Of a DNA stretch of 32,000 nt, positions 14,013 through 27,578 are shown piece after piece (the first letter of the stretch is position 1; each line of letters starts with the position of its first letter). The stretch is from Desulfocapsa sulfexigens DSM 10523. GTDB taxonomy: Bacteria; Desulfobacterota; Desulfobulbia; Desulfobulbales; Desulfocapsaceae. Made by a program: the position numbers and the translations under genes. Where the stretch lies: positions 960,001 through 992,000 of the forward strand of contig NC_020304.1 of NCBI RefSeq assembly GCF_000341395.1, read 5' to 3'. The notes below the pieces were generated by a model that was not told the DNA's origin, did not search any database, and saw only the letters and a program-made list of their open reading frames with translations.

Positions 14013-15194
14013 TCAGATAACCTGATCGATTTCGATAAATTCCTTCAAATCTGAATTCAGGATATTTTTCAGCTCGGCAAAATTTTCCTCGCGCGTCTCA
14101 GTAAAGAGAAATCCAAAAACAGGATAGCTCGTATAGTCAACTTTTCTGAGTTCCAACACCTGCTCAAAACCAGCCAGAAGCTTTTCATAATCAAAGGATT
14201 TGATAACACTTCCATCTATACCGGTTGAATTATCCAGAACGATAAGACTGAAGAGTTTTCCCTCTTTACCCTGGAGCAACTCATCCCAATCCGGTTTTTG
14301 CTGTGTGTAATAATAGAGATAGGGATTCAACCCATAGGCACTGAAGGTCATGTCAGCGGTTGTGCACCAGCCTCCAAAACGCATGGGGTTCACTTCAATG
14401 GGCAGGAGCATCCCGTTGCTCTCTCTTCTCAATTCGATATGTACAGGAAAGCTTTTCACGTCAGCCAACACACCAATTTTCCCTACAAATTCAGTGAATT
14501 CTGCGAGGTTTTCTTCCACAATTTTCTTTGATGTAGTATAGACTCTATCACTGACATCGCTGTCGGATGCAAAAGTGTGACGGAAAATACTCAGAATAAC
14601 AGGAGTACCGCTTTCGTCGTAATAAGCATCGATTGCAAATTCTTCCCCATTAATACACTGTTCAATAATAAAGGAACTGGTATCCAGTACTTCGTCAGGG
14701 TAGAGGCCCCTGATCTCCTCAATTTCCTGGTAAATTAATGCTACGGTCTTCTGCCACTCCGCACTATTTGCAACCTTATACACGCCCATACTGAAAAAGC
14801 CGACGCTTGGTTTGATAATAAAGGGCAAGGGAATATCCTCAAGTTGCAACTCGTGCAACTCCTCCACAGCAACCTCTCTGAAATAGAGGCCAGGAAAGAT
14901 GGACTGGGTCATTTTCCGAAATTTCCCCTTATCCTTAAACAACTCTATTTTTTCAGGAAGATCACTGAAGGGAAAATGCTTTGCCAACCAGCCGATTGCG
15001 TTCTCAGATGTTGTGTATACCGGAAAAATATCCTGCTCCCGAGCCATTGCAATGGCTTGTTCTTCACTGATCATTTTGGTGCCATCATACAACCCGATCT
15101 CTTTAGCTATCTTGGTTGCAACAACAGGAATTCCGTGATCCCTGACACTCTTTTTAAAAAAATCTGACACATAGGGTTTATCTATAAAAAACAT
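14013..15194 (-). CDS. ATP-grasp domain protein (carboxylate-amine or peptide ligase superfamily), substrate unknown
   Basis: 393-aa ORF with ATP-grasp hallmarks: FIIKPSVGFFSMGVYKV, IIEQCINGEEFAIDAYYD, HIELRR ... LPIEVNPMRFGG. Confidence 0.88.
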   Translation of the reverse strand: MFFIDKPYVSDFFKKSVRDHGIPVVATKIAKEIGLYDGTKMISEEQAIAMAREQDIFPVYTTSENAIGWLAKHFPFSDLPEKIELFKDKGKFRKMTQSIFPGLYFREVAVEELHELQLEDIPLPFIIKPSVGFFSMGVYKVANSAEWQKTVALIYQEIEEIRGLYPDEVLDTSSFIIEQCINGEEFAIDAYYDESGTPVILSIFRHTFASDSDVSDRVYTTSKKIVEENLAEFTEFVGKIGVLADVKSFPVHIELRRESNGMLLPIEVNPMRFGGWCTTADMTFSAYGLNPYLYYYTQQKPDWDELLQGKEGKLFSLIVLDNSTGIDGSVIKSFDYEKLLAGFEQVLELRKVDYTSYPVFGFLFTETREENFAELKNILNSDLKEFIEIDQVI

Positions 15195-15705
15195 TCTTCA
15201 TATCCATGGGGTAAGTTTTTCACGCAGTCTGCAGGCCACTCTCATTTCTCTTCCGAACGAAGATATGAAGGATCAGGAACAATGTCAAAACAGTTCTGCA
15301 AATAAAAGCATTAATGAACCCGGTACCTAAAGATGTTCATACTATTTCCCCCGGTGTCAGAAGACAACATTGGTTTCTGAACCTTACGTCCTCACTTCGA
15401 CAATCTTGTCGAGATACACATTGATTGTCGAAGCACCACCTCCCTAAAAGGCACCCACAATTGGATAACATTACGATTTATAAGGATAATAAAAAACAAG
15501 AGCTGTTTGGCACACTTGTTGTAATACCAAAGGCACGGGTCAGGGCAATGCTGTCGGGCGCAGGAAAATTTATCCTTACTCACTGCCAATACAAGAGCAG
15601 AATCATCCTGGAAAGGCCATGATCGCCATAGACGCGCACACGCATTTTATAATTAGCACTCACAACCTTCTCATAAGAGAGGGATAATTTTAAGGAGGAA
15701 TTCCA

Positions 15706-16083
15706 ATGAAATGTTCTACAAAAACTGTCAAAACACTTGTTATTACTGCAGCAATCACACTTATGGCCATCCCTGTTATGGCCGGAAATGGTCATGGCCC
15801 AGGCGACGGTAGTGGAAAATCCGGTTCTGGTCCCAGGGATGGCTCAGGCTACGGTTCGGGAAGTGGCGACTGTCTCAATGCAGCAGGTTTTTATCTGAAC
15901 AGTGATCTGCTTGTACGCGGTGGGAATGGCGGCGGCAATGGTGGTGGAGCCGGGGATGGTTCCGGAGGTGGTGCCGGTGGTAATGGTAATGGTGACGGGA
16001 CTGGCGATGCACCCGGCGATGGTACCGGTAACGGACCCGGTACTGGTTTAGGTGATGGCACCGGGGATTGTCTGGCCTCATAA
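15706..16083 (+). CDS. Secreted Gly/Asp-rich repeat protein with two G-[ST]-G-D-C-L motifs
   Basis: 125-aa ORF with a strong RBS (AAGGAGG). Sec-type signal peptide MKCSTKTVKTLVITAAITLMAIPVMA. The mature part is almost entirely G-D-G-[ST]-G / G-N-G repeats around one hydrophobic island (AAGFYLNSDLLVR). GSGDCL and GTGDCL close each half. Confidence 0.7.
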   Translation: MKCSTKTVKTLVITAAITLMAIPVMAGNGHGPGDGSGKSGSGPRDGSGYGSGSGDCLNAAGFYLNSDLLVRGGNGGGNGGGAGDGSGGGAGGNGNGDGTGDAPGDGTGNGPGTGLGDGTGDCLAS

Positions 16084-16095
16084 TAATGTTAATGG

Positions 16096-16136
16096 GAACA
16101 AAGAATAGTAATTCACTAGGATTCTATTCTTTGTTC
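16096..16136 (+). terminator. Perfect 13-bp stem-loop after the Gly-rich gene (weak T-tract)
   Basis: GAACAAAGAATAG-15 nt-CTATTCTTTGTTC, beginning 13 nt after the stop codon. The following sequence, TCTGCTCC, is not a classic U-run. Confidence 0.4.
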
Positions 16137-16286
16137 TCTGCTCCAGAAGAACAACCCGACTGTACCCGAGATATGTACCTTCACTCTCTATCCATATCCT
16201 TGCCCGGATACGATACTCTCCCGGAGGGATATTCTGGTGACTTGAGCTATGCTCTTTCTTCATAATTCGATACATGCATATAAATA

Positions 16287-16464
16287 CCTGATTACCACTG
16301 AGCCTCAGCTTACCCGCCTGAGGAGGAGTTGTTTCGTGTTGATTATATGGGCATCTGCGGCCTGGACGGCCGCAGCAGAGCCCCCAGGGATGGGTTTATG
16401 GCGTCCCATATAATCGACACGGAACAGCTCCGGGTTGCAAAGCTGAGTTTCGATAGTAATCAGG
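16287..16464 (+). mobile_element. 178-bp palindromic MITE, copy 2, with 8-bp target-site duplication TATAAATA
   Basis: Same length and orientation as copy 1, with a handful of substitutions. TATAAATA is present at 16279-16286 and 16465-16472. Confidence 0.85.
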
Positions 16465-16511
16465 TATAAATATATCGAATGGCAAATATAATTTTCAGGG
16501 AGGGCAATTAA

Positions 16512-17531
16512 TTATTCCAGCCGCCTTTTCCCATCTCTTAAAAACCAGGGTTCCAGTCCGCCGGTCAGAATTTCTACTCCACCACTGTTTACAAGGATGG
16601 TATGTTCAAACTGGGCGCTTAGAGCGAGATCCGCTGTAACCGTCGTCCAATTGTCATTCCACACCCTGGCGCCATGGCCCCCGCAATTGATCATGGGTTC
16701 AATAGTGAAGGTCATCCCCTCTTCCATAACAGCCTTATTTTCCGGGTCATAGGAGTGGGCCACAAAGGGAAACATATGGAAATGCTCACCAATACCATGA
16801 CCGCCATAGGGACGGAAAACGACATAGCCGTATTTGGCGGCGTGGGCTTCAATGACCCGCCCGATTTCGTTGAAGCGCTGCCCCGGTCTGACAACATCGA
16901 TCCCTTTCATCAGGCATTCCCAGGTACACTGAACCAGGGAAAACGCCTCCTCGGTCACGTCACCGACCAGTACTGTCTCGGAGCAGTCACCATGCATGCC
17001 ATCAATATAAACGGTCACATCACAGTTAATAATGTCACCATTTTGCAACTTTCTACTGTCAGGGATACCATGCAATATTACCTCGTTCACAGAAGTACAG
17101 ATTGACTTGGGAAATCCCATATAATTCAAAGGACTCGGATATGCTCCATGTGCTATTGCAGCCTCATGGGCAATTTCATCCAGTGCATCGGTGCTCACAC
17201 CGAGTTCAACTGCCGCAAGCACACTATCCAGTACTTTCCTTGCAACCCCACCTGCCCTGCGCATTCGACTGATTTCATCATCGGATTCTTTTTTACAGGA
17301 CTTCCCTGAATTACCGGTCTTTCCTGTTATGGCATACTCAGGGAGAAATATATGGTCAGGAACCCTTCGTGGAAGGCTTAGTGTACCTGGACCGACAGGT
17401 GCCTTTCCGGCAACCAACTCGTTAGCATCAGGCGGAACCGTTTCTCCCTTTTGGTCCGAACGCAAATGACACCTCTTATATTTTTTACCACTGCCACACC
17501 AGCAGAGTTCATTTCTTCCAGGTACAATCAT
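16512..17531 (-). CDS. map: Type I methionine aminopeptidase with N-terminal SEC-C zinc-binding motif
   Basis: MetAP metal-ligand context (NCDVTVYIDGMHGDCSET, GHGIGEHFH, FTIEPMIN, QFEHTILV). N-terminal CWCGSGKKYKRCH. The start is placed at ATG 17531 (MIVPGRNELCWCG) rather than the longest ORF start at 17600. Confidence 0.92.
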   Translation of the reverse strand: MIVPGRNELCWCGSGKKYKRCHLRSDQKGETVPPDANELVAGKAPVGPGTLSLPRRVPDHIFLPEYAITGKTGNSGKSCKKESDDEISRMRRAGGVARKVLDSVLAAVELGVSTDALDEIAHEAAIAHGAYPSPLNYMGFPKSICTSVNEVILHGIPDSRKLQNGDIINCDVTVYIDGMHGDCSETVLVGDVTEEAFSLVQCTWECLMKGIDVVRPGQRFNEIGRVIEAHAAKYGYVVFRPYGGHGIGEHFHMFPFVAHSYDPENKAVMEEGMTFTIEPMINCGGHGARVWNDNWTTVTADLALSAQFEHTILVNSGGVEILTGGLEPWFLRDGKRRLE

Positions 17532-17785
17532 TAACACCACTCTCCATATGTATTCCCTGTCGATCCACCACTCAAACAGTAAGAAGGAATGACTCAACAC
17601 TCTGAGTCACTTCTCCCCTACGGCCTACAAGATACGCTGAGCTTTGCTCAGCGCAACGGCCGGTGTCAGCTGCCCCAAGCAAATCTGTGGACCAAATTTG
17701 TGCGAAGAGAAATGATCCAAGAACGGAAAAAGTACATTCGAAGAACCGCGCTACCCAAGGTCAGCTGGATACCATTGATAACCAA

Positions 17786-18070
17786 TTATTTTCGTTTTTT
17801 CGCCTTTTTATAGACTAAATTTTTGTCTCTTTTGCCGATAGCAATTACGTAAACAAAAACTTCTTCATCAACTACTTCATAAACAAGCCGGTATCCGCTT
17901 GCTCTGAGTTTAATTTTGTAGTGGTTCTCAAATCCAGACAGGCGACTACCAGAAACATGTGGCGATTCTAGGCGTTCTTTTAATTTTTTCTTGAATTGTG
18001 ATTGTATAGTGTTGTCTAGTTTTTTCCATTCCTTAAGGGCGGTTGGGAGGAATTTTAATTTATAGCTCAT
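17786..18070 (-). CDS. RelE/StbE (ParE superfamily) toxin
   Basis: 94-aa ORF with a family-typical sequence (LKFLPTALKEWKKLDNTIQSQFKKKLKERLESP ... YRLVYEVVDEEVFVYVIAIGKRDK). Overlaps the antitoxin gene by 11 nt. Confidence 0.9.
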   Translation of the reverse strand: MSYKLKFLPTALKEWKKLDNTIQSQFKKKLKERLESPHVSGSRLSGFENHYKIKLRASGYRLVYEVVDEEVFVYVIAIGKRDKNLVYKKAKKRK

Positions 18071-18311
18071 CTAGTGTAATTTCCACAGCTGAGATTTTTT
18101 CAATTTCCCTTTCTTTTACTATAATTCCTAGTTGGTGATCCTCTAGTCTTTCCAGTAGTGCTTCATATGTTTCTGCTGGAATTAAATATGCAGTCGGCTT
18201 GTTGTGATTGAGAATAGCGATTGGTTCACCATCTGACTGATCTATCAAAGCAGAAGGGTTTTTCTTTAATTCTGATATACTTGCTGAGCGGCTTGCTAGT
18301 ACTGATTCCAT
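18060..18311 (-). CDS. Phd/YefM (StbD-like) antitoxin
   Basis: 83-aa ORF. ISELKKNPSALIDQSDGEPIAILNHNKPTAYLIPAETYEALLERLED is typical of Phd/YefM antitoxins. Lies immediately upstream of the RelE-like gene. Confidence 0.9.
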   Translation of the reverse strand: MESVLASRSASISELKKNPSALIDQSDGEPIAILNHNKPTAYLIPAETYEALLERLEDHQLGIIVKEREIEKISAVEITLDEL

Positions 18312-18416
18312 TGATTCACCTATAATATGATTTTTTATTATGGTTTAATTATAGGTCTTAATTGTGGTCTTGTCGAGTTTTATCATTTTTCTGCTTAACG
18401 GTCGCTGTTGAGCAAA

Positions 18417-18684
18417 TAAAAGGGCAAGTCTCCCTTTGACCTATAGAGCCAAGCAAAAGCCAAAAGCAGATTTTCCCCCTTTCGTTACTAAGAAAAAAAA
18501 TTATGATTATTTCGGAAATTCACCTTGTCATACCATTCTTTTGTCATTCACCAGCTTGATCCTACCCCGTTCCTAATTGGACATGATACAAAGCACCTTG
18601 ATATACCATACGTAGTAGCCTTGATATGTTTTTACTTTATCATACACTCACCACATAGGTCAAAAGGAGACTTGACCCTTTTTT
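18417..18684. repeat. About 268-bp unit bounded by 27-35-bp inverted repeats (MITE-like or ORF-less insert) in the spacer after cassette 3
   Basis: AAAAGGGCAAGTCTCCCTTTGACCTAT (18417-18444) pairs with ATAGGTCAAAAGGAGACTTGACCCTTTTTT (18655-18684), with two mismatches in the core. No convincing ORF inside. Confidence 0.4.
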
Positions 18685-18758
18685 TCTCCTTAATTTACCC
18701 GGAAAGGTGGCCTGGAAACCGAGCTGCTTGTTTTCCAGTGCATACAATTGTTATACAA

Positions 18759-18980
18759 TTATAGTTTTTTTTCAGTCTGAAAGCCAGGAGGGGAATCAGA
18801 GGCATTCTCCTCGTCGCACATTTCTGCACAGATGATGCTAACTTTTTTTGCAAAGTTTGTCGGCAGTCGATGTATATTAGGCTCCGCACTAGACATTAAA
18901 TGTGCAATTTCATTAATTGTTGTATTTTGCATGTTTAGATCTTTTGGTGTTGTGTTGAAAAATTTCTTTAGTTTATTCAT
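18759..18980 (-). CDS. Small hypothetical protein (73 aa from ATG 18980; the longest ORF starts at 19019)
   Basis: ORF directly after the 295-aa gene, on the same strand. Its stop lies 2 nt before a GTATAAC core site. Weak RBS. A possible helix-turn-helix-like stretch (TTINEIAHLMSSAEPNIHRL). Weakly supported. Confidence 0.3.
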   Translation of the reverse strand: MNKLKKFFNTTPKDLNMQNTTINEIAHLMSSAEPNIHRLPTNFAKKVSIICAEMCDEENASDSPPGFQTEKKL

Positions 18981-18994
18981 TTCCGAGGCACCAA

Positions 18995-19882
18995 TTAAAG
19001 ATTGTTGACAGCGTGACAAATTGATTTTGCAATTAAGTCAGCTGTGAATTTTAAAGAATCTACATGGGTGATATTAAAGGTATTCTTTTTTCGAGATGTA
19101 ATATGCAGCAATCCTATCATGCTGATCCCTTGGCCATCGTAGCCATTGAGGGGAGCAACCATCATTGTTTTTACTTCATCAGGGTATTGGTCATCATTTT
19201 TTGTTTTTTTATAGAATTCTTGTTTTGATGCTCTTTCTAAATCATTAAAAATGAGAATCCCTTGCTCTTTTTTCTTTAGGAAAAAACTAGGTATGCCCTC
19301 ATCAGAGCATATCGCCTCTGATGTTTTATAACGGTTTTTGTTAAAACCAGAGGATCTTGCAATAGTATAGTAGGTGATTTTATTTACACCTTCGATGTCT
19401 TTTTCTTTAGCAAGTCTTATGGCAACTTCGATAGAATCGTCCTTCAATAATCTAATGTAGTAATCTTTAAGATGGTCACATATTTTACCCGTGAATTTTC
19501 GTAAGAATTTTATCTCGTGTTTCTCATTTCTTTTTTGGTGAGAATGCCTCCTTTTACATATTTTTGTTTGATAATCTCTTAGGAAATGGGAAAGACTATG
19601 TAAGTAAAACTTAATATCTAATGATCTTATAGTTCTAAGCCTCAAATAAAAGAATGAAGCGCAGAATATTAAGGAAAAAAGAAATACCAAAACCAAAAAT
19701 ACTGATTTCATTTCTATGATTCTGGTACTTTTAAAATGTTCTGGCCACCAGAAAGGAGTCCCCATTGATATAATGGTTATTAGTACAGTTATTAAGAAGC
19801 CACGAAGCCTTGAAAAAAAGCCAAGTGCTCCTATCTGCCATGCATTCCTTCCATCTTCAAAGTGGTCTACACATTCAGACAT
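18995..19882 (-). CDS. Integron cassette protein: two-TM N-terminus plus GAF-like C-terminal domain
   Basis: 295-aa ORF. Hydrophobic segments FLITVLITIISMGTPFWW and VFLVLVFLFSLIFCASFFYL. The C-terminal pattern (AIRLA ... YYTIARS ... MMVAPLNGYDGQGISMIGLLHITS ... LKFTADLIAKSI) resembles GAF domains. Confidence 0.7.
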   Translation of the reverse strand: MSECVDHFEDGRNAWQIGALGFFSRLRGFLITVLITIISMGTPFWWPEHFKSTRIIEMKSVFLVLVFLFSLIFCASFFYLRLRTIRSLDIKFYLHSLSHFLRDYQTKICKRRHSHQKRNEKHEIKFLRKFTGKICDHLKDYYIRLLKDDSIEVAIRLAKEKDIEGVNKITYYTIARSSGFNKNRYKTSEAICSDEGIPSFFLKKKEQGILIFNDLERASKQEFYKKTKNDDQYPDEVKTMMVAPLNGYDGQGISMIGLLHITSRKKNTFNITHVDSLKFTADLIAKSICHAVNNL

Positions 19883-19925
19883 TCATTGTTCTCCTAATTG
19901 TAAAGATCGTACGTATTGGTGGATA

Positions 19926-20056
19926 GTATAAAGCCAACGCAAAGCTAAGACGCGCGCCTAGCCGGGGTTAAATTAAGTTCGAGTTGTAATGAGATGGCCG
20001 AAGCCGTTTAAGCAAAGCGCAAGTTTGCGCGTCGTGCTTGAGCGAATTGTTATAAC
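19926..20056 (-). other. attC candidate of cassette 2 (about 130 bp)
   Basis: On the minus strand it opens with G-TTATAAC (20056-20049), 2 nt after the stop codon. It contains imperfect inverted arms (core GACGCGC / GCGCGTC) and closes with T-TTATAC (19932-19926). Its length is in the usual attC range. Confidence 0.45.
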
Positions 20057-20058
20057 TT

Positions 20059-20826
20059 TTATTTTTTAATTACCCTTATTATCTCTGATAGTAAGAAGTC
20101 TAAATCATTTGAGAAATCGATCTGTGTTACGTTTGGCAGAGACTCAGAACTTCTTATTTGAGAATGCAAATAATAATCGGCTATTTTTCTTGAACTATTC
20201 TCAAGATGCTGCATTGATTCTTTAAACGATTTTGCTCCAGAGTAATTATTTGCTACTTCTGAAAACTTAGAACAGTTTAAGATAGGTGGAATATGATCAA
20301 GTATTGCTCTTGTGACCATGATTATTGAGAGATAACACTCACCAGCAAAGTTTATGTTCATTTCCTCACATAAACGAACCAATTTGCTCAAGTCATATTT
20401 TTTATTGGATAAAGCTTTCAGCTCATTAATGCGGTCAGGGTCGACATAGGCTCTTGAGACAGTTTGGATTTTAATTTCTTTTCTTCCACTTTGTTTTGCT
20501 TCGTTTTGTGCTTTTGCTGGCGCTGACAAATTTGATATTTTAATTTTTAATGGTAGGCTTCCAAGCCAGCGAAGACGACTTTGGACTCTCATCCGAAATA
20601 TTGACCAAGAAGATGGGTCATCATAATAACTACCACCAACTACTAAATTTGAATCTCCTTGAGCAGCCCATTCTGCCGAAAGACCACTGTCGGGGAATTT
20701 GGTTGTCAGCCAATCTGTAACTTCATTTACCCAATAGTTAAACTCGCTATGGGTTTCGACAGGCTCATGCTCATCGAGCAGAATTTGCCCCTTTGCAACA
20801 ATTTTATCTAGTCCTTCAAGTGGCAT
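20059..20826 (-). CDS. Integron cassette protein, hypothetical (two helical domains joined by a Lys/Ala/Gln-rich linker)
   Basis: 255-aa ORF bounded on both sides by GTTATAAC core sites. No family recognised. Confidence 0.75.
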   Translation of the reverse strand: MPLEGLDKIVAKGQILLDEHEPVETHSEFNYWVNEVTDWLTTKFPDSGLSAEWAAQGDSNLVVGGSYYDDPSSWSIFRMRVQSRLRWLGSLPLKIKISNLSAPAKAQNEAKQSGRKEIKIQTVSRAYVDPDRINELKALSNKKYDLSKLVRLCEEMNINFAGECYLSIIMVTRAILDHIPPILNCSKFSEVANNYSGAKSFKESMQHLENSSRKIADYYLHSQIRSSESLPNVTQIDFSNDLDFLLSEIIRVIKK

Positions 20827-20845
20827 ATTTCTCTTTATTTACAAG

Positions 20846-20976
20846 TTATAACGTTTGAACTCAGCGGAAAAATAAAATACGTGGCCAGGAGCTTTTCATT
20901 AGCAAGTGCCATTTTACGTGACGGAAACTACACAAACCCCGGACCTCATTTTTTCCGCTGAAGTGACTTGTTAGTG
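20846..20976 (-). other. attC candidate of cassette 1 (131 bp)
   Basis: On the minus strand: R''-like CACTAAC (20976-20970), 4 nt after the stop codon. A perfect 12-bp inverted repeat TCAGCGGAAAAA / TTTTTCCGCTGA (20861-20872 and 20950-20961). R'-like GTTATAA (20852-20846). Confidence 0.5.
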
Positions 20977-20980
20977 TCTG

Positions 20981-22366
20981 TTATCTTGGTATTTTTGATA
21001 GTAAATTTCCAAATGTATCTGCAAATGTTTTTAGGGCATGCTCATCAATTACTTTTGGATCTGTTTCTTTATAATCATATGCTTGTCCAAATATTTTTTC
21101 ACAGAGTTGTTTCTTGAGATTTTTTTGTTCATCCTCATCTAGGGTGCTAATGAATGGATCGAAAGCCTTAATCTGCAAGGCGAACCATCTGTTTCGTTTT
21201 TCATTGTTTCTGTGAACTGTGGATTGTTGTGCAGAATAAGCACTACCCCAAAGAAGAACACCAGATATTGAAAAAGTTGAAAACAGTTTGAACCAAAGAA
21301 GAGCCCCACTTGTTTGAGCTTTCGATGAGGATATAGATTCACTCTTTTTGCTCTGGTCTGTTGTTACTATTTTAGATTTAGCTATATCTTTTGACGGAGG
21401 TCTCGTAACAGCTTCTTCAATCTTGGTGGTGAGTTTTTCCGTTATGTTTTTTTCTTTAAAATTAGTGTGGTAGGAAAATAGTAACCAAAATACAGTGAGA
21501 ATGATAAAGCCTACAGATACGAAACGCCATTTATTAGCCTCAGTTTTTTCTTGGTTTGCATTTTTTAAATAACCTGCACCAACACTGTCACGAGCAGTAA
21601 TTTCGTACAATTCAAGAATTGACTTATGTTTTTCATCACTGTCTGAGAGAATACTTGATATTTTTTGTTCAAATTCAGATTCATTTTCTGATAGCTTTTC
21701 ATTGTACTTGGAGATAACAGTGTCTATCTCAGCCAACTTCTCTTCTGAAAATTTATCGCGCCAATCCGTAAATGATTGACTACGATTTTCTTGGGCAGCT
21801 GAAAATTGCTGTTGCCATTCAGATATGTGACCGTCAATTTCTTGCTTTTTAGTATCTATTTTATCTGACAGTTGCTGCAACTGGGTCTCATTGGTTTTTG
21901 ACGAATCAGATAAATTTTCTAGTATTTTACTTAGCGCATCCTTCTTTGAAATTAACGTTGAGCTTATTGTGTCAATAAGTTGTTCAAGTTCTTTAATCGG
22001 AGGCTCAATAGAATAACTTGTTGTCATTCCCATGAGTAATGATAATTGTGTTAATTGGTTTGCTATTAGATCATTTGCACTTGTCAGATGTGCTACATTT
22101 CCATTGGATTTGTATGAAGTTAATTGTGAGGAAATGTTTTGGTGCCTTAGCTGAGTATTTAGTGAGTCTAGTTGGTTGTACGGGACAATTTCAGGGTCAA
22201 TTTTTCGCAAGGCCTCTTCGTACATAGATACTATTTTTAGTAGCCTTCTTTTTTCAATAATCTCATCTTCATCTAAGTCGTTAAAATTCTCAGAGACATT
22301 ATCTCGAACCCAATTCAATGTTTCATGGATAGGATGGTTCTCAAGTTTTTCTTGCCAACGGTTCAT
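20981..22366 (-). CDS. Integron cassette protein: long coiled-coil N-terminal domain, two TM helices, short C-terminal domain
   Basis: 461-aa ORF. Residues 1-270 are heptad-rich and acidic or Ser-rich (QLQQLSDKIDTKKQEIDGHISEWQQQFSAAQE). TM helices FVSVGFIILTVFWLLFSY and ALLWFKLFSTFSISGVLLWGSAY. First cassette next to attI. Confidence 0.8.
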   Translation of the reverse strand: MNRWQEKLENHPIHETLNWVRDNVSENFNDLDEDEIIEKRRLLKIVSMYEEALRKIDPEIVPYNQLDSLNTQLRHQNISSQLTSYKSNGNVAHLTSANDLIANQLTQLSLLMGMTTSYSIEPPIKELEQLIDTISSTLISKKDALSKILENLSDSSKTNETQLQQLSDKIDTKKQEIDGHISEWQQQFSAAQENRSQSFTDWRDKFSEEKLAEIDTVISKYNEKLSENESEFEQKISSILSDSDEKHKSILELYEITARDSVGAGYLKNANQEKTEANKWRFVSVGFIILTVFWLLFSYHTNFKEKNITEKLTTKIEEAVTRPPSKDIAKSKIVTTDQSKKSESISSSKAQTSGALLWFKLFSTFSISGVLLWGSAYSAQQSTVHRNNEKRNRWFALQIKAFDPFISTLDEDEQKNLKKQLCEKIFGQAYDYKETDPKVIDEHALKTFADTFGNLLSKIPR

Positions 22367-22559
22367 TCTATTCTCTGGGTTTAAGGTTTATGAAGATGAT
22401 AGGTTATTGGACACTAACAGTGTTAATACATGGACAATGTCCATCATAGTACCTTATATATAGCCACTTTTTCCACTTATTTTGATATTAATAGCTTTAT
22501 ATGGAAAAAAGTGTCCACTTATTACTTTTTTCTTCATTTTGTCCATGTAATGCGATATT
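22367..22559. promoter_or_regulatory. attI / divergent promoter region of the integron
   Basis: Spacer between the intI start and the first cassette start. The minus strand carries GTTAGTG at 22418-22412 (GTTRRRY-like core). Several TGGAC/GTCCA repeats, including the palindrome ATGGACAATGTCCAT (22430-22444). Confidence 0.45.
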
Positions 22560-23579
22560 ATGATGGGTATCATGGAGAATAAGACAAAATTTACCCCAAA
22601 CCCTAAGTCAAAATTAATGGATCAAGTTCGAGAGACCTTGAGATATTATCATTATGCTCATTCAACTGAAAAAACATATTGTCAGTGGATTTTGAGATAT
22701 GTCTATTTTTACGATAAAAAGCGACATCCAAAAGAAATGGGAGGCCGCGAAGTTGAGAGTTTCTTATCTCACCTGGCAACACATGGAAAAGTGGCTGCTT
22801 CAACCCAGAGACAAGCTCTCAATGCATTAGTTTTTTTATATCGCGATGTTCTTCAAATTCCTCTTGATCAATCTATCGCCCCCATTCGTTCTAAACGCAA
22901 ACCTCATCCCCCAACCGTTCTTACAGAAAACGAAGTTGAGAGGGTGTTCGCACAAATGAAGGGCACCCATCTACTAATGGCCAAATTGATTTACGGAACT
23001 GGTATACGCCTAATGGAGTGTATTCGTTTGCGTATACAGGATATTGATTTTGGCCAGAGGCAACTGTTTATCCGCTCCGCAAAAGGTGGAAAAGATAGAA
23101 CGACATTTTTGCCTCGTTTTGTTCACGACGAACTTCATGAGCATGTCGAACGTGTAAAAAAACTGCATCGCCAAGATCTTGAGCAAGGCTTTGGCGAAGT
23201 GTATCTACCAAATGCACTAGCCAGAAAATATCGAAAAGCAGCTTGGGAAACATCGTGGCAATACGTATTCCCAAGTAAATCACGATCTATAGATCCAAGG
23301 AGCAAAAAAGAACGTAGACATCACGTACTTGAGTCAGGCCTGCAAAAAGCTGTTAAATCGGCTGTGAGAAAGTCAGGGATCGACAAGCGGGCAACCGTCC
23401 ATACTCTTCGCCATTCCTTCGCTACACATATGCTTGAAAATGGAACCAATATCCGTGTGCTTCAAGATCTTCTTGGACATGCTGATGTGAAAACAACAGA
23501 AATATATACCCATGTTATGCGAAAGGATATTGATGGGTTGCAAAATCCGCTGGATCGTCTGTACAGCAAATCCAATTAG
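22560..23579 (+). CDS. intI: Integron integrase (IntI, tyrosine recombinase)
   Basis: 339-aa ORF that aligns by eye along its length with IntI1-type proteins: [88 protein letters not shown]. It has the IntI-specific insertion [24 protein letters not shown] ... [12 protein letters not shown]. The start may be ATG 22572. Confidence 0.95.
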
Positions 23580-23795
23580 AAGGAAAATCCTTCAAATAAA
23601 CTGCCGTCCATTAAAACAGAAGAGTTATATTTGTTCAATGAATAGTTGTGCTATTTCACTGATAATTCTAATACTATTTTGCAGAGACGTGCGGTAAAAA
23701 GGGTAACTATCGTGTAATATAGGCAGGTTTAGATGTTTCCTGAATATACGTAATAAAACCTAATTTTGCGAAGTGTCGACAACTACAATTAACAA

Positions 23796-23811
23796 CCTGA
23801 TTACCACTGAG
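23796..23811 (+). repeat. Solo 16-bp match to the 5' terminus of the 178-bp MITE
   Basis: CCTGATTACCACTGAG is identical to the first 16 nt of copy 2 (16287-16302). The rest of the element is absent. Confidence 0.4.
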
Positions 23812-23930
23812 TACTTTTGTAACATCCACCTATTTGGGTGATTGTGAAAGAATTGCATCAATATTTATTCGCCCAATTCTATCCTTGAGCTCTTAGCCCG
23901 GGTGAGAAATTCAGGTTAGCCGACCACAAG

Positions 23931-24581
23931 TCAGACAGTAAGGAGGAATGACTCAATACTCTCTGCAACTTCCTGCTCCCTGCCAAGAAAAAAATGGTCA
24001 CTTCCCAAGATTTCATGGATGGTAGCATGTAACGTCACATTGTTTTTTTGTTGAATTAGAAGATTATCGTTTTCAGCAAAAAGCAGCAGAGTTTTGCAGC
24101 CTACACTCCTTAATGGTTCAAAATCGTGTTCACCCAGAGGCGGGGTAATTGCACTAAAGCTGAGAGCAGTCCCGAGTGCGGAGAGCCCAATAAAACTGCC
24201 GAAGGAGTACCCGACCAGATGGAAATTTGAAAAATACCTGGAACTCCACCGTATCACCTCTTCCGTATCACAAATGATTTCAGAAAAGTCATTTTGCTTA
24301 TCCAGCCTGTCCCAGTATTCAAACAGGGGCAGATCTGGTTCTGCCTTGAAACTTTTTCCCACCCCACGATAATTAAAGGAAAGCACCGGAAAATGATATG
24401 CCAGCGTTTCAGCCAGGGCAGAGACAACATTGTTGTCCATATTTCCTGCAAGGAGTGGATGGGGAGAACAGAGAATTACCCCCGGTTGACCGCTGTTTTC
24501 TTCCCTGTAAGTGAGCCTCCCTTCCAGACTCCCGAGCATACAGGGTATGCTTACATCCTGACTGAAATGGGAGCTCATCAA
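23931..24581 (-). CDS. Alpha/beta-fold hydrolase
   Basis: 216-aa ORF with the nucleophile elbow GYSFGS and a C-terminal GSDHFF. ATGA overlap with the preceding gene. Confidence 0.85.
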   Translation of the reverse strand: MMSSHFSQDVSIPCMLGSLEGRLTYREENSGQPGVILCSPHPLLAGNMDNNVVSALAETLAYHFPVLSFNYRGVGKSFKAEPDLPLFEYWDRLDKQNDFSEIICDTEEVIRWSSRYFSNFHLVGYSFGSFIGLSALGTALSFSAITPPLGEHDFEPLRSVGCKTLLLFAENDNLLIQQKNNVTLHATIHEILGSDHFFLGREQEVAESIESFLLTV

Positions 24582-25609
24582 TACACTCCACCACTCTTCT
24601 TTTGGTGAAAACTAAGACCTTCAATATTGCTGATCCCCTGTTCACCATCCCTCATAACCCGAACAGCAGTGTCCCGTTCAAGCATATTTAGAAGCAGAAA
24701 AGATCTGTCGAAACGGTGAAACATAATCCGGCCACGTTGCCCTTCCGGGACTGTATCTGCTAAACGTGGCGGTTCATGTTTATCTTTTGGCAAAGGGAGA
24801 AGATGCAGATGAAGTGACGGATCGTGAACAAAAAAGACAGAAGGTTCTCCCATAATCTGCTCGGATTCAAAGGTTACCCCAAAGAGACTGTTACCATATC
24901 CGGGAAGAATCACTGCAGCAGGAAAGAGCCTTGCAAGCTGCTGGCTGGTCTCACTATCCTGAGCCATACCTCCTGTGTGGATACCCGTAATCTGTAGCCG
25001 TTGCTTCTCTGTCATCTGCTTAGCAAGGACGAGGAGAAGTGGCGGGGTTGTAAAGAGAACCGTAATCTCCTGCTGATTGATAATATTTAAGGCCTGAGAG
25101 CTGAGGTGATCCATATAGAGCATATGGCCCATTGAATTCGGCTGCTGCTGCTTTACCCAACGGACATCACAGTCAATGGAAAAAGGTTCAAGACTATCAG
25201 TAGCACGGGCAAAGGCTCTTGCTGCCTGTGCAATAACATGGGGCCCTGATGGCCCGACAAAGAGCCACTTTTGATGTGTTGGAAAATGAAAGCGCCTCAC
25301 TGCCTGAAGCCAGGGAGCAACAAATGCGGCATGAAATTCTTCTGGCAAATAGACCCTGCGACACGGATTGCCTGTGGTACCACCAGTTTCAGCAAGAATC
25401 ATCTCTGCCATGCAACCGTGGAGTGAACGTGGAACAAAATCAGTAATCGGTCTGCTCCGCATTGCCTCCACATCCATGGGACCAAGCAGCTGCAGATCAT
25501 TGATTTCCTGGAAATCCCGACGCTGCAGATCTTTCCTCTTAAGAGCATCCAGCCAGTATGGTGTGCCGGTATCGGAATCAAAATGAATATCAAGGATCTG
25601 CTCAAACAT
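24578..25609 (-). CDS. PaaK / coenzyme-F390-synthetase-like adenylate-forming enzyme
   Basis: Start placed at ATG 25609 (MFEQILD), with RBS GGAGAG and an 8-nt overlap with the exporter gene. AMP-binding-type P-loop variant ETGGTTGNP. Size and layout are like small ANL-superfamily ligases. Confidence 0.75.
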   Translation of the reverse strand: MFEQILDIHFDSDTGTPYWLDALKRKDLQRRDFQEINDLQLLGPMDVEAMRSRPITDFVPRSLHGCMAEMILAETGGTTGNPCRRVYLPEEFHAAFVAPWLQAVRRFHFPTHQKWLFVGPSGPHVIAQAARAFARATDSLEPFSIDCDVRWVKQQQPNSMGHMLYMDHLSSQALNIINQQEITVLFTTPPLLLVLAKQMTEKQRLQITGIHTGGMAQDSETSQQLARLFPAAVILPGYGNSLFGVTFESEQIMGEPSVFFVHDPSLHLHLLPLPKDKHEPPRLADTVPEGQRGRIMFHRFDRSFLLLNMLERDTAVRVMRDGEQGISNIEGLSFHQKKSGGVY

Positions 25610-27578
25610 TATTTTTCTCTCCTTCCATAAGCAGGACAGGCAGGATGGACAGGTCACAGATCAGTGCCATCCACAGGGACAGACTGATCAAAAGACCAAA
25701 ATAACCAAGCGGTATAAAGGGGGAGGCCAAAAAGGCAAGAAAACCGGTACCTGTCACCAGGGTAGTGGTAATTATGGGGGCTCCTACCTCCCTGAAAACC
25801 TGATCCAGTCGCTGGCGGGGCCTCAGATGTTTATCCTGATTCTGGTAACCGTAGAGAAAATGAATGGTATCATCGACAACAACACCAAAAATAATAGAGG
25901 CAACGGTAATAGTAGCCACTGACAGCGGAATGCCAAACCAGCCCATAACGGATATCACGAGAACCACGGGCAGCAGATTTGGAACCATGGCGATCAGTCC
26001 CATCTTTATCGAACGCAGTAACAATCCGATAAGGAGGGAAATGGCAACAAAGGCCACACTGAAACTTTGCAGCATTGAAGAAAAAAGCTCCTTCTGTCCT
26101 CGCGTGTAGAGGGGGACGGATCCTGTAACGTAGGGCGTGGTCGAGTGGCCAAGATTGCTCTGAAAAAACGCTTCCATCTCATCTGCAATGGCAAGTGTTG
26201 CCTCTGAAGAGATCGTCTTTATAAGAATGGTCAAACGTTCAACCTTCTGGTTGCTCGAAAAAAAATCTGGCAGCAGCATGGTGGCACCAAGACTGACAAC
26301 CTGCTCCGATTGATTTGTCATGGTATACACATAATGGGTAATTTCAGGATGTTGAATGGCAAGCTCCTTTAAATGGCCATCAAGCTCACTTCTAAACAGT
26401 GGCTGTCGGAAAAGATCTATCTCAATGGGGGTGAGACCAACTCCAGCATCTTCAATGGCCTGATAGTTGAGACGTACCACGGAGTTATCGGTGAAAAAAT
26501 CCAAGATCAGAGATCCTTTTTGCAGGCGTCCAATACCAAATCCAGCTACAAGTAGAGCCAACAGCAAGGCAAGGAGAATTTTTCTTCTCTTTCGGAAAAG
26601 GAAAAGGCTTGTACCTGCAGGCAGAACCAGCCTTTTGGAAAAGCTACCCGGCTTCAGAAAGACCGGCACAAGAATAAAAGTGACAAGCAACGATATCAAC
26701 GTTCCAACGGCCCCCCAGAGACCAAGTTCACGAACCGGCCCATAGCTTGAAAAGAGGAGTGAGCCAAAGCCCATTGCCGTCGTTACTCCAGACAATGCAC
26801 AGGGAGGTGCAACTCTACAGAACACATTTATAGGTGTATCGCCAGGATTCCACCTTTTTATGCTGAAATGAATCCCATGGGCCATGCCGAGAATAAGGGT
26901 CAGCGGAGGCAGGGCAAGAAGAACCATATTCATTTTGACCCCACACAAGCCAATAAGTCCCACCAGGAGCACAGCCGAAAGTAACCCACAACTCAAGATC
27001 AGCAGAGCCTGCGTTCTGCATAATAGTAACACAGCAATACTCACCACCAGAAGAACGACCGGAAAAAGGACAGTGGTGGCTTTAGCCGACAGGGTATCCA
27101 GCTGTTTGGTAAGGTACCAGACACCGCCCAGATGATAGGTCTCCACCTGATGCGCCTTCATAATCGGTGGTATTTGTTTGAGTATCTCAGCCAATTGTGC
27201 AGGATTGGCCGTACCTACCGGCATAAGAGTAAGAAGACTTCCCCGTGTCCCCTGGACGGTTTCAAGTCCCACACTCCTGCAGGAACTGACATCCGGAAGG
27301 GTTTTGAGTGCTTTCCTTATCTGGACAAGAGTCAGACCTTTCACTTGCCGGGGAATAAAAATAAGCAGGGGATCTGAAATATTGGTTCGTTTTAGAAATT
27401 GCTGGTAGGCCAACCAGTCTGGAGAATCTGCTGACTGCCACACCTCAAGTGAATTATCAACCTGACTTTTCGATGCGCCATAGCCCCCGACAACAGCAAG
27501 AAACACCATCAGGATCACAACCCACAGGCGATGTCGGCGCAGATTTGCAGCAAAGCGGGAAAGTGTTGTATCCAACAT
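25602..27578 (-). CDS. MMPL/RND-superfamily membrane exporter
   Basis: 658-aa ORF. It has an N-terminal TM segment, a soluble loop and a TM bundle, and this pattern occurs twice. Sequence resembles MMPL/HpnN-type lipid exporters (for example VVDDTIHFLYGY). Confidence 0.88.
   Translation of the reverse strand: MLDTTLSRFAANLRRHRLWVVILMVFLAVVGGYGASKSQVDNSLEVWQSADSPDWLAYQQFLKRTNISDPLLIFIPRQVKGLTLVQIRKALKTLPDVSSCRSVGLETVQGTRGSLLTLMPVGTANPAQLAEILKQIPPIMKAHQVETYHLGGVWYLTKQLDTLSAKATTVLFPVVLLVVSIAVLLLCRTQALLILSCGLLSAVLLVGLIGLCGVKMNMVLLALPPLTLILGMAHGIHFSIKRWNPGDTPINVFCRVAPPCALSGVTTAMGFGSLLFSSYGPVRELGLWGAVGTLISLLVTFILVPVFLKPGSFSKRLVLPAGTSLFLFRKRRKILLALLLALLVAGFGIGRLQKGSLILDFFTDNSVVRLNYQAIEDAGVGLTPIEIDLFRQPLFRSELDGHLKELAIQHPEITHYVYTMTNQSEQVVSLGATMLLPDFFSSNQKVERLTILIKTISSEATLAIADEMEAFFQSNLGHSTTPYVTGSVPLYTRGQKELFSSMLQSFSVAFVAISLLIGLLLRSIKMGLIAMVPNLLPVVLVISVMGWFGIPLSVATITVASIIFGVVVDDTIHFLYGYQNQDKHLRPRQRLDQVFREVGAPIITTTLVTGTGFLAFLASPFIPLGYFGLLISLSLWMALICDLSILPVLLMEGEKNNV

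Follow-up and report, generated by a model that had tools for sequence, protein, structure and literature searches.

A small, partly decayed chromosomal integron in Desulfocapsa sulfexigens DSM 10523

The window (the whole stretch of DNA that was analysed, 32,000 nucleotides) contained a tyrosine recombinase gene, intI, and four gene cassettes upstream of it (Table 1). All genes upstream of intI were transcribed from the minus strand, diverging from it, and the GC content of the array was 36.3%, compared with 46-48% in both flanks; the ORF layout and the base composition thus bore out two features, opposite-strand genes and an AT-rich block, on which the original prediction of a chromosomal integron had drawn. 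That prediction had set the left end at 17786, but the element reached 17651, where a degenerate terminal attC site ended. It had also counted three uncharacterised cassettes plus a toxin-antitoxin (TA) pair: the total of four, TA pair included, was right, except that cassette 3 carried two genes (for proteins of 295 and 74 aa). Structured spacers of 130-170 bp had been described between the genes, which was close for the first two (154 and 176 bp, enclosing attC sites of 131 and 124 nt) but not for the third (447 bp), which followed the small extra ORF and contained a broken attC site and a 279-bp inverted-repeat element. An Rfam scan of 16000-25000 yielded nothing relevant (no attC, group II intron or sRNA family at E <= 5), and no paper naming both Desulfocapsa sulfexigens and integron was found in the literature.

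Table 1. Features of the locus in window coordinates. R2, attC covariance model (E values roughly calibrated); R', R'', L' and L'', attC core sites and arms.
Feature	Position	Strand	Details
attC4 (terminal, degenerate; 133 nt)	17783-17651	-	R2 21.4 bits, E 0.012 (modest)
Cassette 4 (TA pair)	17657-18398	-	Promoter, Phd/YefM antitoxin, ParE/RelE toxin, attC4
ParE/RelE toxin	17786-18070	-	PF05016, 4.4e-13; TIGR02385, 1.5e-8
Phd/YefM antitoxin	18060-18311	-	PF02604, 1.1e-14
Predicted TA promoter	18376-18348	-	TCGACA-17-TATAAT; 11/12 consensus positions, best of the region
GTTAAGC	18393-18399	-	Possible attC3 R' remnant / TA cassette start; fits GTTRRRY
Inverted-repeat element (279 bp)	18410-18688		Inside former attC3; repeats of about 31-35 nt
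attC3 (5' half only)	18689-18756	-	R'' GTATAAC; L'' CACTGGAAAACAAGCAGC; L' arm missing
Cassette 3 (two-gene)	18399-19937	-	ORF 18995-19882 (295 aa, UWK_00853), ORF 18759-18983 (74 aa), disrupted attC3
attC2 (124 nt)	20055-19932	-	R2 24.9 bits, E 0.0023 (modest)
Cassette 2	19938-20851	-	ORF 20059-20826 (255 aa, UWK_00854), attC2
attC1 (131 nt)	20976-20846	-	R2 42 bits, E 5.7e-7
Cassette 1	20852-22417	-	ORF 20981-22366 (461 aa, UWK_00855), attC1
attI region and intI promoter region	22412-22559	-	11-locus alignment
intI, integron integrase (339 aa)	22560-23579	+	TIGR02249; alignment to VchIntIA

The integrase and the attI site

The product of intI matched the "integron integrase" profile TIGR02249 with 425.5 bits (cutoff 265), and the XerC/XerD models with 134-139 bits only (cutoffs about 330). 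It aligned end to end with VchIntIA (PDB 2A3V; residues 5-320, E 2.7e-91), gapless through residues 200-250, the IntI-specific insertion; the presence of this insertion, which lacks a counterpart in XerC/D, had been predicted, and the profile score together with the gapless alignment placed the integrase in the IntI clade. R135, K160, H267, R270, H293 and Y302 of VchIntIA, which we take to be the catalytic R-K-H-R-H-Y residues in the numbering of 2A3V, were all identical in the Desulfocapsa IntI, and the equivalents of W219, P232 and H240/H241 were also conserved. W157, which in VchIntIA reportedly contacts an extrahelical base (crystallography paper), was replaced by R, a point against the assignment.

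Integrases of the same IntI clade (66-92% identity) were encoded in a Desulfosudaceae MAG (locus L008) and in Desulfocapsa/Desulfobulbaceae MAGs (L001, L007, L020 and L021). Nucleotide homology with relatives began at 22406-22418, and across 11 loci the sequence ACTGTT was invariant, similarity breaking off there (crossover ACTG|TT, 22418|22417). The attI crossover core was therefore GTTAGTG at 22418-22412, the crossover falling between G22418 and T22417. Upstream of the core were three conserved motifs of the type GTGGA(C/A)A, among them the palindrome ATGGACATTGTCCAT. The search for a Pc promoter near attI gave 9/12 consensus matches only, no better than shuffled sequence.

None of the cassette or TA genes of the window was present in 36 related intI loci; this variability of the cassettes had been proposed as a check on the integron reading, and no relative shared a single one. 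In the closest relatives (84-85% nucleotide and 91-92% protein identity in intI) the first cassettes already differed. At the other end, homology to relatives stopped within about 8 nt past the intI stop codon, and no flank synteny was found, neither flank being common to any relative. Both observations would fit an intI-attI platform carried on a larger mobile element, an improbable arrangement here: the listed ORFs of 15000-26000 included no transposase or Tn402-type tni gene, and the whole window had no tRNA; the cassette proteins mapped to the 3,986,761-bp chromosome of D. sulfexigens DSM 10523, with housekeeping-like flanks (a methionine aminopeptidase, by sequence motif, and an MMPL-like transporter); and the integrase was below the cutoff of the class 1 equivalog NF011946 (295.8 vs. 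435 bits), that is, it was not IntI1.

attC sites and the condition of the array

A plain arm-complementarity score over all AAC...GTT pairs failed to tell attC sites from background, ranking attC1 5th of 698 and leaving attC2 outside the top 15; it was replaced by home-made covariance models trained only on attC sites of relatives. The first model (R1) drew mostly on a single genome and detected attC2 at E 2.7 only; it was rebuilt as R2 (31 sites), which is clade-specific and whose E calibration is rough. Compensatory changes were seen in 10 of the 12 predicted pairs, and in relatives every match of the same models upstream of intI was on the cassette strand. Detection of attC by a covariance model, a check suggested with the original prediction, succeeded with R2, trained on other genomes only: three sites (attC1, attC2 and attC4) were found in the window, all on the cassette strand and at gene boundaries.

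The R'' core of attC1 (CACTAAC) was the reverse complement of the attI core; its R' was GTTATAA, its stem was 12 bp long, and the site was 82% identical to an attC in L007 that follows an unrelated cassette. The R'' of attC2 (TTATAAC) was in turn the reverse complement of the attC1 R'; attC2 had R' GTTGGCT, 5-nt spacers and an L'' (GCTCAAGC) one base longer than L' (CTTAGC). Cassettes 1 and 2 thus followed a chain rule, each R'' being the exact 7-mer reverse complement of the preceding R', which was also kept over 13 consecutive cassettes in L008 and three in L001; in these two cassettes of the window, R'' began 3-4 nt past the stop codon. The same results bear on a reading as a defence or genomic island that works without cassettes and happens to adjoin an Xer-like or phage-type tyrosine recombinase. 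The low-GC block, the TA pair and the uncharacterised genes with homologues near restriction-modification or Abi genes would suit such an island, but the recombinase scored above the IntI cutoff and below those of XerC/XerD, attC sites and the core chain were present, and the homology of relatives broke exactly at the attI G|TT, which makes an island very hard to credit. The integron reading was upheld by the IntI profile, the break at attI and the three attC sites.

The distal half of the array was decayed. The inverse core expected for cassette 3, AGCCAAC, was absent from the array, and two sites at which the chain walk had continued (9740 and 8036) were discarded as meaningless. In the surviving part of attC3, 18716-18755 was 90% identical over 40 nt to a complete attC (L020 1760-1892); attC3 scored 6.2 bits (E 7.8) with R1 and was undetected by R2. 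The arms of the element inside it (18414-18444 and 18655-18685) were 87% complementary, each doubling as an outward-facing terminator-like hairpin (18658-18677 on the plus strand and 18437-18419 on the minus strand; folding z-scores -4.5 and -3.7). Neither the rest of the window nor 51 loci contained a further copy, so that the label MITE stays a guess. GTTAAGC may be the remnant of the attC3 R': its reverse complement, GCTTAAC, matched the terminal R'' GGTTATC at 5/7 positions, a weak, post hoc match. In attC4, which was homologous to attC sites at L021 912-1046 and L001 830-963, this R'' carried a changed core (AAC to ATC), R' was GTTGCGC, and the L'' stem had changed from CCCCAAGC to CCTTGGGT. 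Because attC3 is halved and the terminal core is mutated, cassettes 3 and 4 (the GAF module and Phd/ParE) are probably fixed; cassettes 1 and 2, with intact attC sites, should be mobilisable.

The broken attC3, the mutated attC4 core and the short array are also what would be expected of a fossil: a genuine platform and array in which intI has fallen silent or lost activity, the array is static and the cassettes behave as ordinary chromosomal genes. A metagenomic intI variant, 98% identical, was interrupted by a 217-bp insertion with a 6-bp target duplication, and therefore intI can be lost in this population. In the window, by contrast, intI was full length and kept every catalytic residue, attC1 and attC2 were intact with perfectly matching cores, and even the closest relatives had different first cassettes; we regard a fossil as unlikely, and IntI is presumably active in recombination at this locus.

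Positions 17651-23579 thus very probably represent a complete chromosomal integron, an element of a known kind: small, ordinary and in part decayed. The original prediction had called it typical of sedentary chromosomal integrons. It is chromosomal, but a sedentary-type array runs to tens of cassettes whose attC sites closely resemble one another, and here four cassettes were found, with attC1, attC2 and attC3/4 of different sequence types; given so short an array, such heterogeneous attC sites and the decay of the distal half, the label "sedentary" is only partly apt.

In such an integron, IntI, a tyrosine recombinase transcribed rightward with attI immediately upstream, would have inserted the four cassettes successively at the G|TT of attI, so that the cassettes point away from intI and are read leftward. 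To excise a cassette, IntI would recombine the attC hairpins on either side of it, folded from single-stranded DNA, and the excised circle would be reinserted at attI, where expression would be strongest. The self-promoted TA pair may act as an addiction module stabilising the array.

Cassette proteins and a possible role in defence

Cassette 4 encoded a type II toxin-antitoxin system (Phd/YefM-ParE/RelE), antitoxin gene first and overlapping the toxin gene by 11 nt. The 461-aa protein of cassette 1 had a coiled-coil N-terminal half and a hydrophobic segment (279-301), and the search for known domains in it found none. In Halomonas, homologues were flanked by attC-like sites, and the family adjoined HsdR and Abi_2; a Neptunomonas homologue was within a cassette array, among AIPR, PIN and PLD cassettes, and an Aliarcobacter homologue shared an operon with genes for an MmeI-type enzyme, a helicase and a T5orf172 protein.

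The 255-aa protein of cassette 2 was all-helical, with two domains, and its R173-x4-H178 motif was invariant in 63 homologues. Comparison of its fold with the PDB gave nothing below E 1, and a profile search of the PDB sequences had no match; the nearest HEPN structures (5yep_B and 1ufb_A) were weak matches, at E 3.6-7.8 only, and some members of the family showed weak Cas13a or Csm6 matches.

The 295-aa protein of cassette 3 had two TM helices and a GAF domain. Its AlphaFold2 model (pLDDT 84) had 45 Foldseek matches in the PDB at E <= 1e-3, nearly all GAF (top match 4mmn_A, E 4.5e-6, TM 0.75 on target), and according to this model it is a GAF-domain protein; weak profile matches to GAF_2 in 11/26 and to GAF in 3/26 members were seen in the family. 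The 74-aa partner was conserved beside the cassette 3 homologue at locus L047 (31% identity, E 1e-6), and a cassette 3 homologue was the gene next to a divergent SAM_4/Phage_integrase recombinase, first in order. Scanning L047 and the loci of the cassette 2 homologues with R2 gave no attC, a result that is uninformative because the model is clade-specific.

From the neighbourhoods of the homologues, an anti-phage or stress role would be the most likely one for the cargo, and the 461-aa family would be the strongest defence candidate. The coiled-coil membrane protein of cassette 1, the Rx4H helical protein of cassette 2 and the membrane GAF protein of cassette 3 together with its small partner are plausible candidates, and we tentatively consider it possible, if doubtful, that at least one of these three modules constitutes an anti-phage or abortive-infection system not described before, moving across phyla as an integron cassette. 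PADLOC gave no match for cassettes 2 and 3, and low-complexity coiled-coil matches only for cassette 1. The boundaries of the three modules are exact and allow direct cloning for phage-resistance screens, which is warranted because unrelated bacteria have homologues of the modules in their own cassette arrays and defence islands.

Comparison with known integrons

The cargo resembles the bacteriophage-resistance integron cassettes (BRiCs; Kieffer et al., doi 10.1101/2024.07.02.601719) in consisting of uncharacterised cassettes with homologues also outside integrons, in defence islands; it differs from them in that the proteins of the window are candidates only for phage resistance and gave no significant PADLOC match.

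The MAG integrons (L008, L001, L007, L020 and L021) share with the window the attI core CCAyrTATTaACACT|GTT and the GTGGA(C/A)A motifs, as well as attC families (attC1 with L007, attC3 with L020, and attC4 with L021 and L001), whereas their cassette content is wholly different. L008 differs further in having at least 15 cassettes, with attC sites that hardly vary, one of them interrupted by a group II intron. The locus leaves the understanding of integrons in general unchanged; it presents an array caught in mid-decay, with two apparently live cassettes, one attC broken beside an inserted repeat element and one core-mutated attC behind a TA pair.

The integrase is like that of the Vibrio cholerae integron (VchIntIA / IntI4, PDB 2A3V) from end to end, the IntI-specific domain included, and the locus shares with V. 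cholerae and other chromosomal integrons an intI divergent from the cassettes and the G|TT crossover. As in the V. cholerae type, the attC sites form imperfect hairpins (about 120-135 nt), TA cassettes have their own promoter and the cargo is mostly uncharacterised. The V. cholerae integron has about 180 cassettes, compared with four here, which are accompanied by three unrelated attC types and decayed distal attC sites. The hosts differ as well: integrons have been studied experimentally in Gammaproteobacteria, and the present locus provides a cleanly delimited integron from a sulfur-disproportionating member of the Desulfobacterota, well outside that group.

Layout of the block and the integrase

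All genes upstream of intI lay on the minus strand, with intI alone on the plus strand (ORF listing; see table), and exact protein matches identified the cassette genes as UWK_00855, UWK_00854 and UWK_00853 of the 3.99-Mb D. sulfexigens DSM 10523 chromosome. The GC content of 17651-22415 was 36.3% vs. 46.4% and 47.6% in the flanks, as expected from the original prediction, which had described the block as AT-richer than its surroundings. To the left of the integron, an ORF in a locally GC-rich patch encodes a 125-aa protein. Its N-terminus resembles a signal peptide; after it come glycine-rich GDG(S/T)G/GNGGG repeats, along with two CL motifs.

Features of the integron and its left flank (cassettes are numbered from attI leftward; R2, covariance model built from attC sites of related loci, whose E-values are rough because its calibration was shortened)
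Feature	Position	Strand	Basis
intI, 339 aa	22560-23579	+	ORF listing
Conserved motif region between intI and crossover	22419-22559		11-locus alignment
attI core, GTTAGTG	22418-22412	-	
Cassette 1 ORF, 461 aa	20981-22366	-	ORF listing
attC1	20846-20976	-	R2 42.0 bits, E 5.7e-7
Cassette 2 ORF, 255 aa	20059-20826	-	ORF listing
attC2	19932-20055	-	R2 24.9 bits, E 0.0023
Cassette 3 ORF, 295 aa	18995-19882	-	ORF listing
Cassette 3 small ORF, 74 aa counted from ATG	18759-18983	-	ORF listing
279-bp segment	18410-18688		
cgaccGTTAAGC	18399-18393		consensus GTTRRRY core
Cassette 4 ORF, 83 aa	18060-18311	-	ORF listing
Cassette 4 ORF, 94 aa	17786-18070	-	ORF listing
attC4	17651-17783	-	R2 21.4 bits, E 0.012
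ORF for 125-aa protein	15706-16083	+	

IntI scored 425.5 bits on the NCBIfam model TIGR02249 “integron integrase” (cutoff 265), remained far under the cutoffs of the XerC, XerD and XerA models, and did not reach the class 1 equivalog NF011946 (295.8 vs. a cutoff of 435). Its best match among solved structures was VchIntIA (IntI4, 2A3V; E 2.7e-91), aligned without gaps across query residues 19-334, and the IntI-specific segment singled out by the original prediction is present within this alignment. R135, K160, H267, R270, H293 and Y302 of VchIntIA, its catalytic residues, were all identical in the window IntI, as were W219, P232 and H240/H241, reported in the crystallography paper to contact the extrahelical bases; W157 is replaced by R. 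Judged by its sequence, the protein is an intact IntI outside class 1, since it passed TIGR02249, failed NF011946 and kept the VchIntIA catalytic residues. A metagenomic intI 98% identical to that of the window (locus L025) carries an insertion of ~217 bp (716-932 of that locus) at the point corresponding to window 23217-23222, with a 6-bp target duplication (CTAGCC) and terminal inverted repeats (ATTTCTCATGA...TGATGAGAAAT); some members of the natural population thus have a disrupted integrase.

The attI region and the attC sites

Scanning metagenomes together with a single genome per species gave 36 loci encoding relatives of IntI (protein identity 41-98%), most of them from Desulfocapsa, Desulfobulbaceae or other Desulfobacterota MAGs, and nucleotide similarity between these loci and the window was limited to 22406-23588. 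The intI-proximal intergenic region was aligned for 11 loci (the window, L001, L003, L007-L009, L014 and L018-L021). Three conserved GTGGA(C/A)A-type motifs, two of them palindromic (GTGGACAnnnnnTTCCAT and ATGGACATTGTCCAT), may serve as additional binding sites for IntI, or as an operator through which a regulator controls intI. The stretch TCCAyrTATTaACACTGTT was nearly invariant in the 11 loci and the sequences directly past GTT were unrelated; such a break in conservation, together with the core, is characteristic of attI with crossover at G|TT.

Since a search of Rfam gave no attC-family match, a covariance model was built from the relatives. When their arrays were walked from the attI core, the 7-mer R'' (inverse core, at the 5' end of attC) of each cassette was the exact reverse complement of the preceding R' (core, at the 3' end), which is what the opening at G|TT of a cassette circle with a paired R box should produce. 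The rule was kept across 13 consecutive cassettes in L008, three in L001, and two each in L007 and L020. Nineteen sites obeying it, window sites left out, formed the training alignment, in which RNAalifold placed 12 pairs in the L-box stems, with compensatory changes in 10 of the 12. Model R1 was built from these 19 sites and R2 from 31, and the matches of both in the relatives were restricted to the cassette strand upstream of intI. One attC of the L008 array, from a Desulfosudaceae MAG, is interrupted (916-2878) by a 458-aa gene and ~590 bp of GC-rich structured sequence, an insert that looks like a group IIC-attC intron.

Covariance-model detection of attC, a check named in the original prediction, was obtained with R2: scanning the whole 32-kb window with filters off gave three full-length matches (attC1, attC2 and attC4), each at the end of a gene and on the minus strand. 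The other matches (E > 1) were short local-end artefacts. The R'' of attC1 (CACTAAC) starts 4 nt past the stop codon of the 461-aa gene and is the reverse complement of the attI core, and that of attC2 (TTATAAC) starts 3 nt past the stop codon of the 255-aa gene and is the reverse complement of the attC1 R' (GTTATAA). By rough estimate, an exact 7-mer would occur by chance in a given 150-nt spacer with a probability of ~0.01, and two in succession with ~1e-4. An attC following an unrelated 718-aa gene in L007 was 82% identical to attC1; attC2 has the textbook layout, in which 7-nt R'' and R' boxes are separated by 5 nt from L'' and L', respectively, and its L'' is one base longer than L' (GCTCAAGC vs. 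CTTAGC).

Decay in the distal part of the array

Cassette 3 starts with TTGGCT, so the expected inverse core is AGCCAAC, a 7-mer not found anywhere in the array. Downstream of its 74-aa ORF lies GTATAAC-AATTG-TATGCACTGGAAAACAAGCAGC, a stretch that shares 90% identity, across 40 nt, with the 5' half of a complete attC of L020 (1760-1892). The matching 3' arm of this attC3, which would read ...GCTTGTTTTCCAGTG, is missing and its place is occupied by the 279-bp segment. The ends of this segment are inverted repeats of 31-35 nt (87% complementary), and both arms score as terminator-like hairpins facing outward; the segment has folding z-scores of -4.5 and -3.7 vs. shuffled sequence, and holds a 16-nt direct repeat (CACCTTGnnATACCAT) with a spacing of 73 nt. 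It is a candidate MITE, ORF-less cassette or sRNA, and MITE is a guess, since no second copy was found in the window or the fetched loci. Just past the segment, the reverse complement of cgaccGTTAAGC agrees with the attC4 R'' at 5 of 7 positions, and cgaccGTTAAGC might, in a weak and post hoc reading, be a remnant of the attC3 R' and the start of the toxin-antitoxin cassette.

The terminal site, attC4, is clearly homologous to attC sites of L021 (912-1046) and L001 (830-963). Its inverse core is GGTTATC (AAC changed to ATC), and within its L'' stem CCCCAAGC has become CCTTGGGT, a change that leaves nothing but G-T wobble pairs on the top strand and hence mismatches on the recombinogenic bottom strand. 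Cassettes 3 and 4 are probably no longer excisable singly, and perhaps not at all.

Cassette cargo and genomic context

Phage defence encoded by integron cassettes has been published (doi 10.1101/2024.07.02.601719). The cassette 1 protein had no Pfam, NCBIfam, PHROG or significant PADLOC match; its N-terminal half is long and helical, and residues 279-301 form a hydrophobic segment. At least 120 full-length homologues (35-53% identity) are scattered among Gamma- and Epsilonproteobacteria, Nitrospirales and others, and five of their neighbourhoods were inspected. The Halomonas homologue has R2 matches on both sides and adjoins HsdR and an Abi_2 protein, and that of Neptunomonas lies in a same-strand array with R2 matches which includes AIPR, PIN and PLD genes. 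In Aliarcobacter cryaerophilus (locus L039, 3365-12676) the homologue directly adjoins the end of an MmeI-type enzyme gene, and genes for a 774-aa unknown protein, a DEAD/ResIII helicase, a 92-aa protein and a T5orf172 protein come after it, all closely packed on one strand. This set may be an uncharacterised multi-gene defence system. The Hydrogenimonas homologue lies near a 1277-aa Eco57I/MmeI-like enzyme, and the Shewanella neighbourhood was uninformative.

The cassette 2 protein has 673 homologues, mostly on contigs of 1-2.5 kb; R173 and H178, together an Rx4H motif, are invariant in 63 homologues. Its AlphaFold model (pLDDT 86) shows two helical domains with a disordered linker between them, and no PDB fold matched it at E 1 or better. 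HEPN is a lead rather than a finding, because two HEPN structures matched at E 3.6-7.8 and the matches of a few family members to Cas13a or Csm6 models were weak. One homologue lies between a protein of >2100 aa (weak NACHT-type matches) and an MmeI-type enzyme; the remaining contexts inspected were unremarkable.

The 295-aa protein of cassette 3 (model pLDDT 84) begins with two hydrophobic helices, continues with a long helix and ends in a GAF fold (Foldseek, best E 4.5e-6). Its pairing with the 74-aa protein is conserved elsewhere, and one metagenomic contig has the pair in first position next to a divergent SAM_4 + Phage_integrase recombinase. Cassette 4 encodes a Phd/YefM-ParE/RelE pair (profile matches), and the best promoter match of the region (TCGACA-17-TATAAT) lies 37 nt upstream of the antitoxin start codon.

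The cassette, toxin-antitoxin and flanking proteins of the window were encoded in none of the related intI loci, and its chromosomal flanks, on either side, were shared by no relative. Among the relatives, intI-distal flanks were almost unshared except in near-identical assemblies, and contigs mostly ended a few hundred bases upstream of intI, which could reflect assembly breaks at variable arrays. Similarity to the window stopped no more than ~8 nt past the intI stop codon in every relative (23580-23590); this, with the unshared flanks, indicates an intI-attI module in different contexts across Desulfobulbales genomes.

The element is a canonical integron in each structural respect tested, and both the observation and the integron interpretation of the original prediction were borne out, with corrections. 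Standard software would find this integron, and our literature search found no paper on an integron in Desulfocapsa sulfexigens; novelty could come solely from experimental testing of the cargo. Compared with classical sedentary chromosomal integrons, the array is short and its attC sites are heterogeneous. From class 1 integrons the element is set apart by its integrase and by the lack of transposition genes among the ORFs listed for 15000-26000.
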